Shown here one piece after another: positions 50,574 to 64,000 of a stretch of DNA of 64,000 bases. A program made the translations under genes and the position numbers. Origin of the DNA: an uncultured Clostridia bacterium (GTDB lineage: Bacteria; Bacillota; Clostridia; Saccharofermentanales; Saccharofermentanaceae); assembly GCA_946537885.1 (NCBI GenBank), contig CAMNGC010000001.1, positions 57,897-121,896 on the forward strand. The letters are read 5' to 3'. Within the stretch, counting starts at the first letter, position 1, and each line of letters starts with the position of its first letter. The notes below the pieces were generated by a model. The model saw only the letters and a list, made by a program, of their open reading frames with translations, had not been told where the DNA came from and ran no database searches.

Positions 50574-51034
50574 GGTTCTTCGCGGAAAGCTTGGGATTTC
50601 TCATCTATAGGAGATTGCTGATCGAAAAAGTTCTTCTCCGGCATCGGGTAATGCTATTTTTTGCAATCTCGAAAATAGCATTACAAAATAGCGGCAAGAG
50701 TAATGCCAAAAAGCCCTTTGGCTTGATTTGGCATTACAGGATCACGAGATTGGTAATGCTGATCTACGGAAATTGAGAAATAGCATTATCAAATTGATAA
50801 AAAATGTAATGCTAATCAGCAACTATGCCTTAAATAGCATTATTGGCCGACTGAAAATGTAATGCTAATCAGCAGGTTTGGCATAAATAGCATTATCAGG
50901 CAAGCAATAATGTAATGCAAAAAATGAGGAATGCCAACAAAAGCATTACCGAGGAAGCATAGGATTCATTGTGCGGGAATGATATAGAGCGTCAGGCATC
51001 GAGCACCTTCCTCCCAAGTTTTCCGCGAAGAACC
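50574..51034. mobile_element. MITE-like element with palindromic array cargo (copy 2)
   Basis: 23 bp terminal inverted repeat GGTTCTTCGCGGAAAGCTTGGGA (50574-50596) / TCCCAAGTTTTCCGCGAAGAACC (51012-51034), 1 mismatch; T-rich flanks; left end homologous to 1366-1443. Confidence 0.8.
50648..50949. repeat. Array of 6 palindromic units with variable spacers, 52-53 bp period
   Basis: GTAATGC-N23/24-GCATTAY-N15/16; units start at 50648, 50700, 50753, 50806, 50859 and 50912. Confidence 0.93.
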
Positions 51035-57014: not shown

Positions 57015-58190
57015 ATGACCTCTGATGATCACATTTATTACGAGAATATTCATGCCAAGCGCAAGGCTTTCCTGAGGAGCTTTATCGCTGTCTTTGTTCT
57101 GTTTGCCATCATCACACTGACCAGGCTCCCGGGGCATACGGAAAAGCTGGCGGTAAAGCTTTGCGCATTTGCTGCTGCAGCTTTTACCATAGGCCTGATC
57201 ATGGGGATCTATTCTGCCGTTAAAGCGGCTGATGTAAAGATCGTCATAGGTGATGAGACTGTTGATGTTACCGTCGGGAAGAAGCACGGAAGCTATCCGC
57301 TCGAAGACTTCGAGCGTGGGGAGAGCAAAGCAGCTGGCAATGCTTACAAGAGAACATATAGCCTGATCTTCCATGACAGCAGCATTGAGCCGGAGATTTA
57401 CAACAACAGCCGGGATGATCTTTATATCCTTCTGCCGGGCATAAGCGGGAAACTTTTCGAGAAGATCGCAGATGCGCTCTCGATCCGTAAGCATCTCGTT
57501 CACCTTTCGTATGAAGAAAGCATTCCTCTCGCGCCTTTTGTTGGAAATGTCTACAAGAACAGGGAAGAAGAGACGGGATTAAGCACCTTGATCAAGCTTT
57601 ATGTGGGGATGACCATAATAGCAGCTCTTTTTGTGGTAAGCGCAGTTGTCCTGTATGTTATCGATTTCTTCACGCTTTTTTATAGCCTTTTGATCGCATG
57701 TTGCGGGACTCTGGCGCTGATACTCTCGGCGGGGTTTCTGATCATGCTTATTCGCCGCGAAAAGAACGGAAGCGTTAACTATCTGCGCAGCATCGAATTC
57801 GGAATTGACAGTATCCGCATCAATGACGGCGAAGTTATTAATCTGCGGGATGTTGCATCTGTATACATCACTCAGCCCTACCTCGAGAATATGGAGTTTA
57901 GCAAACGTGTGCTCGTGATCGAGCCGCTGCTGCTTAAGGGGATGTCCGGAAATGCCTTGAAAGATGTCGGATTGGACGCCGGCGGGCGCCTGACTGACGG
58001 GGCCGATTCACGAGCTTTACTTACTTATGTCATCGGAAACCGCCCGTCTCCTTCCGGGTCTGAGCGTCTTTTGGCAGAAGGCTGCAGCTGTGAATATCCC
58101 GCGCTTTATGCCCGTATATGCCGTTTGTGCGAGAAAAATTTCGTGCTGGTCAGGGACTATCGGGACAGGTGGCTGTCAGATTTGGAGTGA
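57015..58190 (+). CDS. Hypothetical membrane protein
   Basis: AAGGAGG SD; two TM hairpins each followed by a soluble region; no recognised motif. Confidence 0.7.
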   Translation: MTSDDHIYYENIHAKRKAFLRSFIAVFVLFAIITLTRLPGHTEKLAVKLCAFAAAAFTIGLIMGIYSAVKAADVKIVIGDETVDVTVGKKHGSYPLEDFERGESKAAGNAYKRTYSLIFHDSSIEPEIYNNSRDDLYILLPGISGKLFEKIADALSIRKHLVHLSYEESIPLAPFVGNVYKNREEETGLSTLIKLYVGMTIIAALFVVSAVVLYVIDFFTLFYSLLIACCGTLALILSAGFLIMLIRREKNGSVNYLRSIEFGIDSIRINDGEVINLRDVASVYITQPYLENMEFSKRVLVIEPLLLKGMSGNALKDVGLDAGGRLTDGADSRALLTYVIGNRPSPSGSERLLAEGCSCEYPALYARICRLCEKNFVLVRDYRDRWLSDLE

Positions 58191-58193
58191 GAT

Positions 58194-58302
58194 GTAATGC
58201 TTTTTTCGAGAATAATCGAAAAAGCATTACCTGAAAGAAAAGTAATGCCAAATCCTTATTGCCTCAAAAATAGCATTACTGATCTGATGTTAGATGTAAT
58301 GT
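58194..58302. repeat. Truncated GTAATGC/GCATTAC palindromic array (2.5 units)
   Basis: Units at 58194, 58242 and 58296 (partial); same arms and 23-24 nt loop as 50648-50949. Confidence 0.88.
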
Positions 58303-58310
58303 CAAAATAG

Positions 58311-58571
58311 TGTCCCTTAAAACTAGTTGATGGAGGAATAGTTCATCCTGACTTTACCGTGCTTGATATTAAAACGCGTAAGGAAAAGTATTGGGAGCAC
58401 TTCGGGATGATGGGAAATTCCGAATATTCAGCAAATGCCATTCACAAGCTCAATAGATACTATGCTTCCGGACTGGACCCTGGAAATAGATTATATATGA
58501 CATTTGAATGCGAAAAGGAGCCGTTGACACCACAGACAATCAACACGGTGATTGATTCGATGGGATTATGA
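58311..58571 (+). pseudogene. 5'-truncated PD-(D/E)XK-like (Vsr/DUF559-like) nuclease gene fragment
   Basis: Reading frame CPLKLVDGGIVHPDFTVLDIKTRKEKYWEHFGMMGNSEY...KLNRY...LYMTFE; PDF..YWEH.G resembles a restriction-endonuclease-fold active site; in-frame TAG immediately upstream. Confidence 0.6.
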
Positions 58572-58572
58572 A

Positions 58573-58795
58573 CTCGCAACCCTTGCAAGCAAGTTGCTCG
58601 CCATGCAATATCGTCGCTTCGCTCGCAACCCTTGCAAGCAAGTTGCTCGCTTGTGCAATATCGTCGCTTCGCTCCGATAAAGCACACTGCGCTCGCAACC
58701 CTTGCAAGCAAGTTGCTCGCTTGTGCAATATCGTCGCTTCGCTCCGATAAAGCACACTGCGCTCGCAACCCTTGCAAGCAAGTTGCTCGCTTGTG
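58573..58795. repeat. REP-like tandem repeat, 70 bp unit
   Basis: CTCGCAACCCTTGCAAGCAAGTTGCTCGC... at 58573 (49 bp short unit), 58622, 58692 and 58762 (partial); internal hairpins. Confidence 0.92.
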
Positions 58796-58804
58796 TGCTA
58801 TAAT
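58794..58804 (+). promoter_or_regulatory. Extended -10 promoter, probably leaderless transcript
   Basis: TGTGCTATAAT followed after 6 nt by ATG 58811; no SD. Confidence 0.65.
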
Positions 58805-58810
58805 TCCCGC

Positions 58811-59686
58811 ATGGGCTCAAGTTCAGTAAAAGTTATAATTGCGGCGCATAAGAAGTGCGAGCTGCCGAGAGATGAGATCTATCTCCCGGTGTTTGTCGGC
58901 GCGGCTCTTAAGCGCAGCGGAGCGTTGGAGGCGTCGGAGGCGTCGGAGGCGTCGGGGGCGTCGGAGGCGAGTGGGATCCCTGAGGGCTTCACGCCTGATG
59001 ACACCGGCGAGAATATTTCGGTCAAGAACCCGTATTATTGTGAGCTGACAGGGCTTTACTGGGCTTGGAAGAATCTGCGTGATGACTATATCGGTTTGGT
59101 CCATTATCGCAGATTTCTTGGCAGACGCGGCAGTAAAAAGGATCCGTATGCCGGGGTGTTGACGAAGAAGCTTTGGGACAAGGAGCTAGCAGCGAATCCG
59201 GATATAAAAGTGATAGTGCCGCAAAAGCGTAATTATTACATTGAGACGCTTGGATCACATTATGCACATACTCACGATGCCACACATTTGGTGACGACGC
59301 GAGCTATAATAGCAGAACAGCAGCCGGATTACCTGAACTCTTTTGACCGTGTTATCAGGCAGAGAAGCGGACACATGTTCAATATGATGATCATGAAGCG
59401 TGATATGCTTGATAATTACTGTAATTGGCTCTTCCCCATATTGGATGAGCTCGTAAAACGCACGGATATAAGCGGCTTATCGGCATTTGATGCAAGATTT
59501 CCGGGAAGAATCGCTGAGATATTGTTGAATGTGTGGTTGGACTTTAACGCGGATATCGGTATTATTAGTAGGCGTAGCATTGTCTCGATGAGCTTTTTCG
59601 AGGCAGGAAGGGTGAACTGGCTTAAGAAAGGGACAAGTTTTCTGAGTGCTAAGTTCACCGGGAAAAGGTATAAGGGTAGCTTTTGA
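58811..59686 (+). CDS. DUF4422 family polysaccharide biosynthesis protein (putative glycosyltransferase)
   Basis: IIAAHK, DDTGENIS.KNPYYCELT.LYWAWKN, IGLVHYRR, FNM.IM motifs. Confidence 0.85.
   Translation: MGSSSVKVIIAAHKKCELPRDEIYLPVFVGAALKRSGALEASEASEASGASEASGIPEGFTPDDTGENISVKNPYYCELTGLYWAWKNLRDDYIGLVHYRRFLGRRGSKKDPYAGVLTKKLWDKELAANPDIKVIVPQKRNYYIETLGSHYAHTHDATHLVTTRAIIAEQQPDYLNSFDRVIRQRSGHMFNMMIMKRDMLDNYCNWLFPILDELVKRTDISGLSAFDARFPGRIAEILLNVWLDFNADIGIISRRSIVSMSFFEAGRVNWLKKGTSFLSAKFTGKRYKGSF
58922..58969 (+). repeat. 9 bp coding tandem repeat (GCGTCGGAG) x5
   Basis: Encodes ALE-ASE-ASE-ASG-ASE inside the DUF4422 gene. Confidence 0.9.
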
Positions 59687-59723
59687 TCGGAAGGCATTGT
59701 TGAAGATTTGGAGCAGATGACAA

Positions 59724-60521
59724 ATGACTGAGTTATCGAGAACATATAAGAGGACCAAGAGGAATCTTCTTAAGAACCGCTTTCTTTTCGAGGAGCTGGT
59801 AAAGAGAGATTTCTCGCATAAGTATAAGGGAACATTCCTGGGTATGGGATGGAGTATTATGGCTCCGCTCCTGCAGCTGTTGGTATTGAAGATCGTATTC
59901 ACGGAGTTTTTCGGTCGTAGTACGCCTCACTTTACCATCTATCTTTTCTCAGGCGTTACCGTCATGAACTATTACCGCGAGGCCACTAATAACGGTATGA
60001 CGAGCCTTGTAAGTAATTCATCCATCCTGACTAAGATAAAGGTGCCCAAATACCTGTTTCTACTGAGTCGCAATGTGTCGGCACTGGTCAATTATCTGAT
60101 CATTTTGGTGGTGTATTTCGTCTTCTGCGCGATGGATCATATAAATTTCCATGCGAATTTTGTCATGCTGATCTTTCCGGTAATGTGTCTGCTGATAATG
60201 AATATCGGCGTCGGCATGGTTCTGTCGGCCCTGTATGTTTTCTTCAGGGATATGACCTATCTTTACAGCATCTTCCTGATGATCCTTAACTATCTGTCAG
60301 CCATTTTCTATACGGTTGACCGCTTCAGCCCCAAGGTTCAGAGAATGTTCCTGGCAAACCCCGTTTATGTAATTATCAGATATTTCCGATTGCTGGTCAT
60401 AGACGGCGTCGTTCCGTCGCTCCAGTATCACGCCTTATGCGCCGGCTATGCGCTCTTCTTCCTGATACTCGGAAGCATTTTCTACAAGTCGCTGAATAAT
60501 AAGTTCGCTTATTATTTCTGA
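59724..60521 (+). CDS. Polysaccharide ABC exporter permease (Wzm/TagG type)
   Basis: LVKRDF..KYKG..LG..W....P, VFFRD, NPV; multiple TM segments. Confidence 0.9.
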   Translation: MTELSRTYKRTKRNLLKNRFLFEELVKRDFSHKYKGTFLGMGWSIMAPLLQLLVLKIVFTEFFGRSTPHFTIYLFSGVTVMNYYREATNNGMTSLVSNSSILTKIKVPKYLFLLSRNVSALVNYLIILVVYFVFCAMDHINFHANFVMLIFPVMCLLIMNIGVGMVLSALYVFFRDMTYLYSIFLMILNYLSAIFYTVDRFSPKVQRMFLANPVYVIIRYFRLLVIDGVVPSLQYHALCAGYALFFLILGSIFYKSLNNKFAYYF

Positions 60522-60537
60522 TATGAGAGGAAAAGAT

Positions 60538-61494
60538 ATGGCTGTTATTGAATGTAATGATGTAAGTATCAAATATATATCCGGTGACATTAAGCAGATC
60601 GGTCTTAAAGAGTATGTCATGCGTAAGCTGACAGGCAAGTTCAATAAGCGGATTTTCTGGGCTGACAAACATGTCTCATTCACTCTCGAAAAGGGTGATA
60701 TGTTGGGCATAATAGGCTCCAACGGCGCCGGCAAGAGTACTCTCCTTAAGGCGATCACGGGCGTTATGCAGCCGGCTGAGGGCAAGATCCATGTCAAAGG
60801 TGATATTGCAGCTCTCTTAGAGCTCGCCAGCGGTTTTGATCCGAATATGACAGTTCGCGAGAACACTTATCTGAGAGGCGCCATGCTCGGATATACCAAG
60901 GAGTTCCTGAATGCAAAATATGACGAGATAATTGCTTTTGCCGAGCTCGAGGATTTCCAGGAGTACACATTTAAGCAGTTATCGAGCGGAATGAAGAGCC
61001 GTCTGGCTTTCTCCATTGCATGTCTTGTCGAACCTGATATCCTGATCCTCGATGAGGTCTTGAGTGTCGGCGACGGTGCTTTCCGCAAGAAGAGCGGCGA
61101 CAAGATGAAGGATATCCTTAGCGGCGGCGTTACGGGGCTTCTCGTATCTCACGCAGTAGGTCAGATCAGAGAGCTCTGCAACAAGGTCCTCTGGCTCGAT
61201 CACGGCAATCAGATCATATTCTCGGATGATGTCGAGAAGATCTGCGATGCCTATGAGGAATTCCTTGAGACCAAGAAGCTTCCCGAGAACGAGGCTGATT
61301 TTGACGTTATGGCGATCGCTTATAACGAGAGGCTCAAGGAGGAGCGCGAAGCCAAGAAGGCCAAAGAGATCGCAAAGCTTGAAAAGGTCATCGAAGACGG
61401 TAATAATGACAGTGTGGTCGAGGCGGCGGTAAGGATCCTCATGAAGAATTCTCCCGAGCTTCTGAATATGGACGAGATCAAGAACAGAAAATAA
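60538..61494 (+). CDS. Polysaccharide ABC exporter ATPase (Wzt/TagH type)
   Basis: GSNGAGKSTLLK, SSGMKSRLAFS, DEVLSVGD; the alternative ATG is at 60523. Confidence 0.92.
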   Translation: MAVIECNDVSIKYISGDIKQIGLKEYVMRKLTGKFNKRIFWADKHVSFTLEKGDMLGIIGSNGAGKSTLLKAITGVMQPAEGKIHVKGDIAALLELASGFDPNMTVRENTYLRGAMLGYTKEFLNAKYDEIIAFAELEDFQEYTFKQLSSGMKSRLAFSIACLVEPDILILDEVLSVGDGAFRKKSGDKMKDILSGGVTGLLVSHAVGQIRELCNKVLWLDHGNQIIFSDDVEKICDAYEEFLETKKLPENEADFDVMAIAYNERLKEEREAKKAKEIAKLEKVIEDGNNDSVVEAAVRILMKNSPELLNMDEIKNRK

Positions 61495-61522
61495 AAGATG
61501 TAAAGTAGTCGTGGGGGCAGTT

Positions 61523-62569
61523 ATGAAGTTGGAACTACGAGCTGATGCTGTGTCTAAGTATCGCCAGGAATTGATGGGGTTAAGTATTCTCGGGATTCTG
61601 TTATTCCACTTTTTTCAAGACTGCCGAAGCAGTGGCTACAACTATACCGAATATGCCAGATTCTATTTCGAGCATGTGGGTTCGTCCTGTGTTGATGTGT
61701 TCCTCTTCCTATCCGGATTAGGCCTTTTTTACTCCCTTAAAAAGAACGGTGAAGTGCGAAGTTTTTATGCCAAAAGATTCCGGAAGATACTAATACCTTA
61801 CTTTCTGGTAGCAATTCCGGCATTTATATACCTGGATATAGTATCCAAAGATTCCATTTCCAAGTTCTTTAGAGATATATTCTTTGTATCCTTTATGAAG
61901 GATGGCAGTATTCTATTCTGGTATATCCTTTTGATAATGATATGCTATCTGTTCTCTCCTCATTTGTTCAGATATATTGATTCGTCAAGAGACGATCACG
62001 AGATGTATAGCAGAATGTTTGCCATTCTGACTTTCGTTATTTCCTGCATTCTTGCCCTGCAGCTTAATTGCGGTGAGTTCTTTGATAAGACAAATATCTT
62101 GATACTCAGGATACCTGCTTTTATCGGAGGAATGTTCATGGGGCGCCTTTCGTATACTAAGGCCAAGCTCGGTTCCGGTTTTTTTCTTATCTTGATCCTT
62201 GCTGTTTTCCTTAATAACCAGATTGCTATTTCTCCTATCTACACCTTGAGACTGGTGATAGCGTTGACGGCTATTTGCGCAGCTGTTTTGATTGCTTTGA
62301 TATCAGATGCTTTTTTATCCCGATTCAAGATCTGCAGCAAAATAGTCTTCCCGATACTCAGGTGGATAGGCAGGTATACATTAGAGTTGTACATCTGCCA
62401 TGTAGCGGTAAGAAGGATCCTTAACAAAGAGGATTATCCTACCTGCCGCTATCGCTATGAGCTTCTGATGCTTGCGATAAGCATCCTTGCTGTGGTAATT
62501 GTCCGTCTGTTGACACTGATGATAAATAAGGCCTTTGATACGATACACAAGAATTATGCTGCTAAATAA
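61523..62569 (+). CDS. Acyltransferase family 3 (O-acetyltransferase)
   Basis: R.ELMG, H, VDVFLFLSG.GL, KRF.KI, WYI, G.YTLE.Y..H; multiple TM segments. Confidence 0.85.
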   Translation: MKLELRADAVSKYRQELMGLSILGILLFHFFQDCRSSGYNYTEYARFYFEHVGSSCVDVFLFLSGLGLFYSLKKNGEVRSFYAKRFRKILIPYFLVAIPAFIYLDIVSKDSISKFFRDIFFVSFMKDGSILFWYILLIMICYLFSPHLFRYIDSSRDDHEMYSRMFAILTFVISCILALQLNCGEFFDKTNILILRIPAFIGGMFMGRLSYTKAKLGSGFFLILILAVFLNNQIAISPIYTLRLVIALTAICAAVLIALISDAFLSRFKICSKIVFPILRWIGRYTLELYICHVAVRRILNKEDYPTCRYRYELLMLAISILAVVIVRLLTLMINKAFDTIHKNYAAK

Positions 62570-63689
62570 GATCAGATCGATGTTAAATATGATACGAGTA
62601 TCCATTTCGAGGCCTGATATCGAGCCTGCGAAGATCTTCGTCATGACTTTTGATAATTCCTATAGCTGTAATCCCGCAGCGATCGCAGATGAGCTCTTAA
62701 GCTTAGGGGATGATCTTGATATCGTGTGGGCAGTCAGCGATAAAACGGATCTGTCTTTATTCCCAAAAGGGATCAGAACTGTAAAACGCGGCAGTAAAGA
62801 TATGTTCGCCGAGATGAGAAGTGCGAGGATATGGCTCGATAACGGCCTTAACTGTGTCTGGTATTTTATGCCAAAACGCAAGGGACAGATCTATATAAAC
62901 ACCTGGCACGGCAGTCTCGGGATCAAAAAGCTCGGTGGAAACAAAGCTTGGAAACTTAGAGCGAAGACCTGCCGCAGGAAGACCGATTACATGATCTCCA
63001 ACAGCAGCTTTGAAGAGAATGTTTTCGGCTCAACTTACTGGAAAGGCGTCCCTTGTCTCAGATTCGGACATGCGAGAAATGTTGTCCTTTTTAATGAGGA
63101 GCGATTCCCCGAGATTGCCACAAAAGTAAGAAAGACACTGGGCTTATATGATGGTCGCAGGATCCTCCTATATGCTCCGACCTTCAGAGACGATGGGCAG
63201 AAGGATTTTCCGAGACCGGATTGGGACAAGGTTATCGCAGCTCTAAAGGAGCGCTTCGGAGGAGACTGGGTCATCGTGTCAAGACTTCATATGAAGGACA
63301 GAGACAGTATTTCTTCATCTGTCGAAAATGTTATCGACGCATCCGGTTATCCCTTGATCTCAGAACTTATGATCGCATCCGATGTTGCCGTAACGGACTA
63401 TTCCAGTTGGATCTATGATTATATCCTGCTGAAACGGCCGGGCTTTATTTTCGCTCCGGATGCCAATGACTACGAGACGACAAGGGGACTTTATTATCCT
63501 CTGTCCGAGACGCCTTTTGATGTAGCTTCTGATACGGAAAAACTGTGTTCAGATATAAGGGGATTTGACGAGTCGGCATATGAGGCAAAGGTCAAAGGAT
63601 TTCTTAAGGAGAAAGAATGCTGTGATGATGCTGATTCGGCTAAGCGTGCCGCCGAGTTTATAATGGATAAGTGCCGCAACATAGTATAA
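62556..63689 (+). CDS. CDP-glycerol/ribitol phosphotransferase (TagB/TagF family)
   Basis: YSCNP, TWHG, G.ARN, LYAPTFRD, RLH, TDYSS; start uncertain (62556 or 62580). Confidence 0.9.
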   Translation: MLLNKIRSMLNMIRVSISRPDIEPAKIFVMTFDNSYSCNPAAIADELLSLGDDLDIVWAVSDKTDLSLFPKGIRTVKRGSKDMFAEMRSARIWLDNGLNCVWYFMPKRKGQIYINTWHGSLGIKKLGGNKAWKLRAKTCRRKTDYMISNSSFEENVFGSTYWKGVPCLRFGHARNVVLFNEERFPEIATKVRKTLGLYDGRRILLYAPTFRDDGQKDFPRPDWDKVIAALKERFGGDWVIVSRLHMKDRDSISSSVENVIDASGYPLISELMIASDVAVTDYSSWIYDYILLKRPGFIFAPDANDYETTRGLYYPLSETPFDVASDTEKLCSDIRGFDESAYEAKVKGFLKEKECCDDADSAKRAAEFIMDKCRNIV

Positions 63690-63725
63690 AATATATTGAT
63701 AAATCGTTATTAGAGAGGGAGCCAT

Positions 63726-64000
63726 ATGAATGTCGCGCTGATTTTCGCCGGCGGTACCGGTAAGAGGATGCACTCGGGTAATATTCCGAAGCAGTTTCTG
63801 GAGCTTAATGGGAAGCCGATCATCGTTCATACCATCGAGCATTTCGATAAGCATCCGGAGATCGATGCTATTGTTGTTGTTTGCATTGAAGGTTGGATAG
63901 ATTTCCTTAAGGATAAGCTTAAGGAATTCGGTATCACCAAGGTCATCTCGGTTGTACCGGGGGGAGCGACAGGTCAGGGTTCCATTCGTAACGGCCTATA
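63726..64000 (+). CDS. IspD/TarI family cytidylyltransferase (partial, runs off the window)
   Basis: [15 protein letters not shown]....PKQFL...GKPII.HT; GAGGGAG SD. Confidence 0.88.

Follow-up and report, generated by a model that had tools for sequence, protein, structure and literature searches.

Genes of an unnamed protein family of about 265 amino acids, whose C-terminal domain is predicted to be a nuclease, are frequently preceded by an array of inverted repeats, and the sequence of the repeat arms varies together with the protein, most strongly with its N-terminal sheet. The locus reported here is best read as a deletion remnant of such a stand-alone cassette of array plus nuclease gene. 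It lies at positions 58194-58571 of the window, a 64,000-nt stretch of contig CAMNGC010000001.1 from an uncultured Clostridia bacterium of the Saccharofermentanaceae (GenBank assembly GCA_946537885.1).

Positions 58194-58308 hold two full GTAATGC...GCATTAC units and one further half-site, followed by the 3' remnant of a nuclease-family gene, as an earlier reading of the letters (hereafter the sequence-only reading) had noticed when it described 2.5 units running into a gene remnant. Unit 1 (58194-58230) consists of a GTAATGC half-site, a 23-nt spacer and an inverted GCATTAC half-site; unit 2 (58242-58279) is a second such half-site pair, and the first half-site of unit 3 (GTAATGT, 58296-58308) ends at the junction (58309-58310, + strand), a 2-nt overlap at the place where a longer allele carries additional bases. 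The half-sites lie at 58194 (F), 58224 (R), 58242 (F), 58273 (R) and 58296 (F), with spacings of 30/18/31/23. The first eleven half-sites of another array in the window, at 50648, are spaced 30/22/31/22/30/23/31/22/31/22, and by this comparison the 58194 array has a first linker that falls short by about 4 bp. The window contains 23 occurrences of GTAATGC, while 5.98 are expected, and 0/100 shuffles reached as high a count. An in-frame TAG at 58308-58310 precedes the remnant (58311-58571, + strand), which comprises 86 codons plus the stop; this open frame, CPLKL...SMGL, has no start codon. It corresponds to the last 86 codons of the family and aligns to profile positions 183-265 of 267, so that the PDF and EHxG motifs are retained and the RSKSE helix, the coiled coil and the N-terminal sheet are missing. 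Having lost the sheet, which is the putative reader of the arm, and part of the predicted active site, the window allele is likely dead. A Pfam search of the remnant gave no real match, and close full-length relatives of it were not found, the best having 50% identity.

The fusion had been attributed to a deletion by the sequence-only reading. Contigs of other samples do contain a longer allele, which still falls short of the whole gene. Two contigs of one sample (X1 and X3) follow the window to 58310, add 275 bases and rejoin it at 58309; contigs from three other studies (X2, X5 and X8) depart from the window at 58309, and their letters keep the reading frame and are family-like. No contig in 7 distinct runs bridged the window-type junction with 31 letters on each side, and the junction therefore reflects either a deletion in the strain or a collapse in the assembly. 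In either case, the window is missing sequence that other samples contain at this point. The remnant starts at about residue 179 of 264, so 534 nt of the gene are missing; with 534 nt needed and 275 nt extra, the longer allele, too, stops short of the N-terminal part.

Arrays upstream of the family genes

The sequence-only reading had proposed that an intact locus would consist of the array followed by the nuclease. We assembled 168 loci, which yielded 151 unique matches, of which 142 full-length loci were retained; most belong to a single genus and are related to one another, and the counts are hence not independent draws. One unbiased array detector was applied to all regions, the upstream region being 450 bp. 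Arrays of at least two units were found within 450 bp upstream of 88/134 full-length homologs, compared with 15/138 downstream, 0/142 in the coding region and 3/132 at 450-900 bp upstream; arrays of at least three units preceded 53/134. Among control genes of the genome that holds the window, defined as those with at least 200 bp of non-coding sequence upstream, the corresponding figures were 24/461 and 6/461. The proposed order is thus borne out by 88/134 family genes against 24/461 controls. The idea that arrays typically lie downstream, which came from a single copy on contig C12, was rejected on the counts (88/134 upstream versus 15/138 downstream). The upstream association is also seen in other families (L036, L039, L042 and L155). 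At 21/80 loci a promoter was scored, mostly just 3' of the last half-site.

The GTAATGC type itself occurs in front of an intact gene: in Lachnospiraceae, locus L204 has an intact family gene with eight detected GTAATGC units immediately in front of it. In an all-genome scan for the GTAATGC pattern, this was the only locus with a family gene among the 80 loci listed, and the GTAATGC array pattern matched 3/100 genomes of the genus, two of them as single matches. An apparent tmRNA gene, recognized by eye, follows the intact GTAATGC cassette (L204:3075-3200).

The sequence-only reading had placed the remnant in a common uncharacterised clostridial family, and the family is indeed large. At E<=1e-30 the family comprises 3,828 clusters (50% identity), mostly from Bacillota where the taxonomy is known; it is present in 83/100 genomes of the genus and 18/200 genomes of the class, with several divergent copies per genome, and the remnant as query found relatives in 23/41 genomes. 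No Pfam or NCBIfam model fits any of 24 family members, and a PDB sequence search returned only matches with E>=0.29. The ESM Atlas places the family in unnamed clusters, one of which has DUF6788 in 14% of its members; 'DUF6788' was not found in openly readable papers, and the openly readable main texts (without supplements) yielded no account of the nuclease family or its array. In the genome that holds the window (G000), the only close full-length homolog (C12:35825-36721, L025) carries a low-complexity insertion of about 37 residues, a distant full-length homolog (C11:27398-28150, - strand) has an array upstream with a period of about 74 bp by eye, and C10:69015-69536 is a second remnant holding the nuclease part alone.

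Duplex phasing, predicted fold and arm co-variation

The sequence-only reading had anticipated upstream arrays with a period of about 53 bp. Periods are indeed either about 52 bp or some other multiple of 10.5: they cluster at 41, 51-53, 61-64 and 73-75 bp, and 171/179 deviate by no more than 1.5 bp from n x 10.5. Mixed lengths occur in 10/57 arrays, 7 of which step by about 10-11 bp, or about one helical turn. For the hairpin test, near-duplicates and arrays under three units were removed, leaving 54 arrays. Arm mismatches in these had no G.U bias (G.U 180 versus A.C 160, p=0.30), and flank pairing beyond the motif was equal for partner arms (0.223) and non-partner arms (0.223). Helical periods, together with the lack of G.U bias and of partner-specific pairing, are as expected if protein binds at phased positions along double-stranded DNA, and not as expected of RNA. 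Of the two binding assays put forward by the sequence-only reading, an electrophoretic mobility shift assay therefore fits better than RNA immunoprecipitation sequencing, because the array behaves as double-stranded sites.

An AlphaFold2 model of a family protein (predicted local distance difference test, pLDDT, 94) opens with a helix (residues 2-27), which is followed by three strands forming a sheet (about 33-58), a long helix (61-96) and a C-terminal alpha/beta domain. For the latter, a Vsr-like PD-(D/E)XK fold is predicted. By structural comparison it matched the catalytic domain of I-Bth0305I (3r3p; Z 8.8, root-mean-square deviation (rmsd) 2.7, 90/98 aligned) and TnsA (1t0f; Z 8.8, rmsd 3.2, 115 aligned), and among 24 members the PADLOC models PDC-S68 (at the C-terminus), PDC-S69 and HEAT_CxxC_PD-DEXK (E 2e-8) matched 24/24, 16/24 and 10/24, always within the nuclease domain. 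Structure and PADLOC thus both favor the nuclease-like C-terminal domain that the sequence-only reading had suggested. In 127 sequences S158, K159, E178, D192, E207 and E244 are invariant and E161 is conserved in at least 90%; putative catalytic roles of K159, E161, D192 and E207 were assigned from motif order. Of the composite EDxHD motif, which includes the equivalents of His69 and Asp97 of Vsr, the E and D are present, and the alignments show no conserved His after EHxG. The same nuclease domain also ends long RecD-like, RecQ or AAA proteins of other phyla (plasmid hits H3-H11; L043 and L044), where it matches PDC-S68 as well.

A homodimer prediction scored 0.64, while the best of 3 controls scored 0.00; the mark used for this score is attained by 20/30 solved pairs and 1/23 single chains. 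At least 96% of contacts agreed between runs, with partner pLDDT of at least 88, and the predicted contacts (93-93', 89-97', 86-98' and 82-101') have the long helices cross antiparallel. The modeling thus supports a homodimer. At 1.5 A per residue, the two sheets of the dimer would lie, as a rough estimate, about 100 A (about 30 bp) apart, which matches the half-site spacing of 30-31 bp in the window arrays. Modeled alone, the sheet reached pLDDT 91. A fold search with it gave nothing significant (best Z 4.2, with chromodomain- and chemokine-like rows), and Pfam on 109 N-terminal sheets likewise found nothing significant, the single match being Arm-DNA-bind_1 at E 0.039; a resemblance to integrase arm-binding domains is thus putative.

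The sequence-only reading had asked whether arm sequence co-varies with protein clade, and it does. In the 80 best arrays, which carry 53 arm types, arm similarity climbs with protein identity. The partial correlation of arm similarity with residues 31-60 was r=0.142, a value reached in 0/500 permutations, and no partial correlation with the nuclease domain was found. In 27 sister pairs the partial rho was 0.71 for the sheet, 0.53 for helix 1 and -0.40 for the nuclease. Individual comparisons show the same. Loci L072 and L073 occupy the same site and encode proteins that are 83% identical, and both their sheets and their arms are different; in a set of 16 orthologs that share one site, variability is highest in the sheet (49% identity, versus 77% for the nuclease) and the arms differ. 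On these grounds, the protein probably binds its own array. In the pairs L072/L073 and L102/L114, the C-terminal halves of the genes are near-identical and the N-terminal halves different, which suggests recombination or gene conversion inside the gene.

Orphan arrays and genomic context

Most arrays of the host genome, which has 19 arrays of at least three units, are orphans without a gene. The window contains one of these: a six-unit GTAATGC array (50648-50949, periods 52-53 bp) within a non-autonomous ISL3-type element, whose left (50574-50596, + strand) and right (51012-51034, - strand) terminal inverted repeats form the 23-bp inverted pair I2. The same terminal repeat also ends a 1451-bp element (L382) coding for an ISL3 transposase, identified above curated cut-offs; with an L382-type query, an ISL3 transposase was not found in the host genome (88% complete). 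At least one ISL3-type terminal repeat is present at all 9 other GTAATGC loci of the genome. The 58194 array, unlike these, has none in the 450 bp before and 700 bp after it, in agreement with the sequence-only reading, which had described it as lacking terminal inverted repeats. That reading had also given it spacers different from those of the array at 50648, which applies to one unit: the spacer of unit 2 has no clear match (13.5/24), and that of unit 1 resembles the terminal unit of orphan arrays (16/23; median 10.75).

The genome has twelve terminal-repeat pairings, with eleven distinct right ends, and the arrays inside them are of several types. The pairings are flanked by A/T tracts, and no exact target-site duplication was seen by eye in the 12 pairs. 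ISL3-ended elements, among them G000 C3:169656-170430, C12:29999-30718 and C18:20247-20689, are mosaics of array types in fixed order, suggesting that element copies may have recombined. In genome G005, an orphan array behind an ISL3 end (L347) and the array that precedes an intact gene (L005) share 79% identity over 192 bp. Both are in the same genome, and the match supports a capture of orphans from gene-linked arrays, which ISL3 ends likely then spread. A spread of orphans by elements with terminal inverted repeats had been envisaged by the sequence-only reading. Its further suggestion that the nuclease might be the mobiliser is not supported: the terminal repeats in or beside which the orphans lie belong to an ISL3 insertion sequence, and the nuclease is therefore likely not the mobiliser of orphan arrays.

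The gene-linked cassettes are spread over 92 gene contexts at 143 loci. In the loci read, the gene stands alone between whole genes, with no intron, intein or fractured host gene. Of 158 extracted flanking frames, 60 were scanned, and about half had no match; at E<=1e-15, the matched frames belonged to housekeeping, metabolism or signalling (uvrB, recJ, tRNA ligases, secA, tpi, nadE, proC and potD), with no defence gene, DNA methyltransferase or antitoxin among them. At the site after potD, the gene was present in 17/31 loci, 6 were plainly empty (the host genome included) and at least 4 had an array without the gene; 30 of these loci were the nearest matches to a cassette-bearing genome, which biases the share with the gene upward. 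The cassette is thus gained and lost at fixed intergenic sites. One clade holds the same site in 16-17 genomes, and no protein pair of at least 70% identity occurred in different contexts, so that there was no sign of a near-identical gene having moved recently. The family matched 2/50,697 phage records, no plasmid match covered 80% of the protein, and scans of viral contigs found nothing.

Readings of the cassette and related systems

The full reading, in which a dimer binds its own duplex array as the operator and sink of a selfish cassette, has in our judgment about an even chance of being correct. The three-stranded N-terminal sheet would read the arm as double-stranded DNA. A dimer would reach across a pair of inverted half-sites about 30 bp apart, its nuclease domains sitting on the dyad, by analogy with AbaSI or I-Bth0305I, and one dimer after another would bind to the same face of the helix, in phase with the array. 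The array, which ends near the start codon, may then serve as operator and sink, restraining an otherwise harmful nuclease, and the cassette could persist as a selfish, addiction-like element. Reader and arm would change together, and resident copies would thus fail to neutralise a newcomer; orphan arrays would be picked up and dispersed by ISL3 ends. A stronger version is doubtful, though worth stating: a one-gene addiction or defence module with a DNA antidote, in which a swappable 30-residue sheet is joined to a nuclease inactive on its own phased array, thousands of reader-arm pairs form a learnable code for two inverted half-sites of 7-10 bp, and the ISL3-spread arrays are decoys.

Several points count against the full reading. 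No upstream array was detected for 46/134 homologs, and the four-unit GTCAACAGA array of the C12 homolog is downstream and of the type that is the commonest orphan in the genome. The L204 protein, which has the intact GTAATGC array, ranks 257th of about 290 against the remnant, with 38% identity, a comparison in which the C-terminal part alone is comparable. The spacing of half-site centres varies, being 19-26 and 26-33 bp in most 52-bp arrays, and a fixed 30-bp span is therefore not general. The nuclease matches at Z 8.8 are level with those to coiled coils, and none of the Foldseek matches, the top rows of which are nucleases of the PD-(D/E)XK fold, reached E<=0.001. An array made up of full cleavage targets would itself be cut, and the addiction role is drawn from analogy. 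Finally, helix 1, which is encoded nearer the array, also correlates with the arm (r=0.076, 1/500 permutations as high), and linkage could account for part of the co-variation of arm and protein; the sheet does, however, outscore helix 1, although helix 1 is nearer the array.

We considered other explanations for the pairing of gene and array. The nuclease may be an anti-phage sentinel, parked on the array and released or activated, to kill the cell, when infection degrades or remodels the chromosome. The PADLOC models that match its C-terminal domain (PDC-S68 24/24, PDC-S69 16/24, HEAT_CxxC_PD-DEXK 10/24) are candidate defence models, the same domain ends helicases and AAA ATPases on plasmids, and genomes hold several divergent copies; however, these matches are restricted to the nuclease domain and the matched flanking frames (60/158 scanned) include neither a defence gene nor a DNA methyltransferase, which leaves a sentinel unlikely. 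A TnsA-like mobiliser, for which the array would be an end-binding platform for cutting and moving or converting the cassette into new intergenic sites, appears quite unlikely to us. Such a role would suit the structural match to TnsA, the 92 contexts of 143 loci, the presence or absence of the cassette at the potD site, and the near-identical C-terminal halves with different N-termini, which suggest frequent recombination in the gene. It sits poorly with the lack of proteins at least 70% identical in different contexts, a clade fixed at a single site in 16-17 genomes, mostly one-sided arrays, orphans that carry ISL3 ends, and the scarcity of phage (2/50,697) and plasmid matches (none over 80% of the protein).

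The chance that the array acts as single-stranded hairpins, either as RNA (antitoxin, or guide as in CRISPR and TIGR-Tas arrays) or as single-stranded DNA (ssDNA) in the manner of REP/RAYT or Ssn/SRM, is small. Periods are quantised at the DNA helical repeat even within single arrays, neither G.U bias nor partner-specific pairing was found, an Rfam scan of the window gave no match, and the fold search returned neither HUH nor GIY-YIG; yet every unit is an inverted repeat, some with stems of 11-13 bp, pairs of ssDNA-acting nuclease and palindrome are known, as the accessible text on Ssn describes (PMC11893778), and, as a weak point, an RNA-run contig (X16) extends from the upstream gene into the array, to 58250. 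Slimmest of all is the chance that the arrays are independent dispersed repeats for another protein, which occur at the same intergenic hot spots as the gene, with hitch-hiking as the source of the co-variation. The orphan majority (19 arrays of at least three units in the genome), the gene-less arrays at the potD site and the correlation of helix 1 with the arm are what such repeats could produce, but they would not readily give 66% versus 5% in controls with a strong upstream bias, a separate arm for each gene, or an orphan (L347) that is 79% identical over 192 bp to the gene-linked array of L005.

The putative binding of the array by its own gene product invites comparison with addiction modules. 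AbiE is reportedly autoregulated through inverted-repeat operators at its promoter. With toxin-antitoxin and restriction-modification modules the cassette would share, as a proposed logic, inverted-repeat autoregulation and diversification of specificity; unlike two-gene addiction modules it is a single gene, with no antitoxin or DNA methyltransferase in the 60/158 flanking frames scanned. The orphan arrays resemble ISL3-derived miniature inverted-repeat transposable elements, a known kind of element, in lying between the terminal repeats of the 1451-bp ISL3 element, and differ from them in carrying a mosaic cargo that combines several array types.

Among nucleases paired with repeats, the accessible text on Ssn describes a monomeric GIY-YIG enzyme that cuts ssDNA hairpins, with SRM/NTS repeats on both sides (Chenal et al. 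2025, PMC11893778). As there, a small stand-alone nuclease gene lies beside presumably cognate inverted repeats, many specificity pairs exist and repeats also occur far from the gene. The present family differs from Ssn, as described in that text, in its predicted PD-(D/E)XK domain, predicted dimer, separate variable N-terminal sheet and mostly one-sided, duplex-phased array, and GIY-YIG had no Pfam or NCBIfam match in 24 members. REP/BIME sequences with RAYT likewise combine clustered palindromic units beside a DNA-cutting gene with intergenic orphans (Di Nocera et al. 2013, PMC3733652), RAYT being, according to the main text of that paper, a tyrosine transposase acting on hairpins. By comparison with REP units as treated in that text, the present arrays have no pairing beyond the motif and have quantised periods; in the 24 members, no Pfam or NCBIfam match to an HUH (Y1) transposase was found, the positive matches being to another fold, and 'Clostridi', 'Firmicutes' and 'DUF559' are absent from the main text of PMC3733652.

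The remaining comparisons concern architecture. According to the text available, an I-Bth0305I dimer contacts up to 60 bp of pseudo-palindromic DNA (PMC3239194); the enzyme resembles the family in its length of about 265 amino acids, a DNA-binding N-terminal part (predicted here) and a Vsr-like C-terminal domain. From EDxHD homing endonucleases, as that text portrays them, the family differs in having no intron or intein and no NUMOD/HTH, in its apparent motif RSKSE...PDF...EHxG in place of EDxHD, and in its presumably cognate array upstream. The best architectural model for the family is AbaSI/PvuRts1I. AbaSI is described in the accessible text as a dimer with central Vsr-like domains and readers held apart, which cuts between sites about 22 bp apart; its SRA-like domain reads modified cytosine and has no sequence specificity, and that text mentions no array for it (PMC4081097). 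In conclusion, the cassette appears to be a nuclease-plus-cognate-repeat pair that lacks one or more defining features of each of Ssn/SRM, REP/RAYT, I-Bth0305I and AbaSI.

Every intact copy seems to be accompanied by a target motif of its own. If the protein does bind it, the code from reader to motif could be read from genomes alone, and the family would offer naturally occurring nucleases for a wide variety of targets. A dimeric nuclease of 265 amino acids with two half-sites of 7-10 bp would be a compact rare cutter, the specificity of which could be altered by an exchange of about 30 residues. Binding would, in addition, account for a class of phased palindromic arrays between genes, along with the capture and spread of arrays by insertion sequences.

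The remnant has neighbors of other kinds. Upstream, 57015-58190 is an unnamed membrane-protein gene with only distant relatives in the genus, mostly at 23-35% identity. Directly 3' of the remnant's stop codon begins a different repeat (58573-58790), with a period of about 70 bp and the core CTCGCAACCCTTGCAAGCAAGTTGCTCGC, which is the source of most matches in the 41/100 genus genomes matched by this region. Further downstream (58772-64000) lies a surface-polysaccharide cluster whose first gene is DUF4422, the remaining labels being taken from the translations by eye; within the DUF4422 frame, a 9-bp tandem repeat (GCGTCGGAG) at 58922-58969 codes for ASE repeats.
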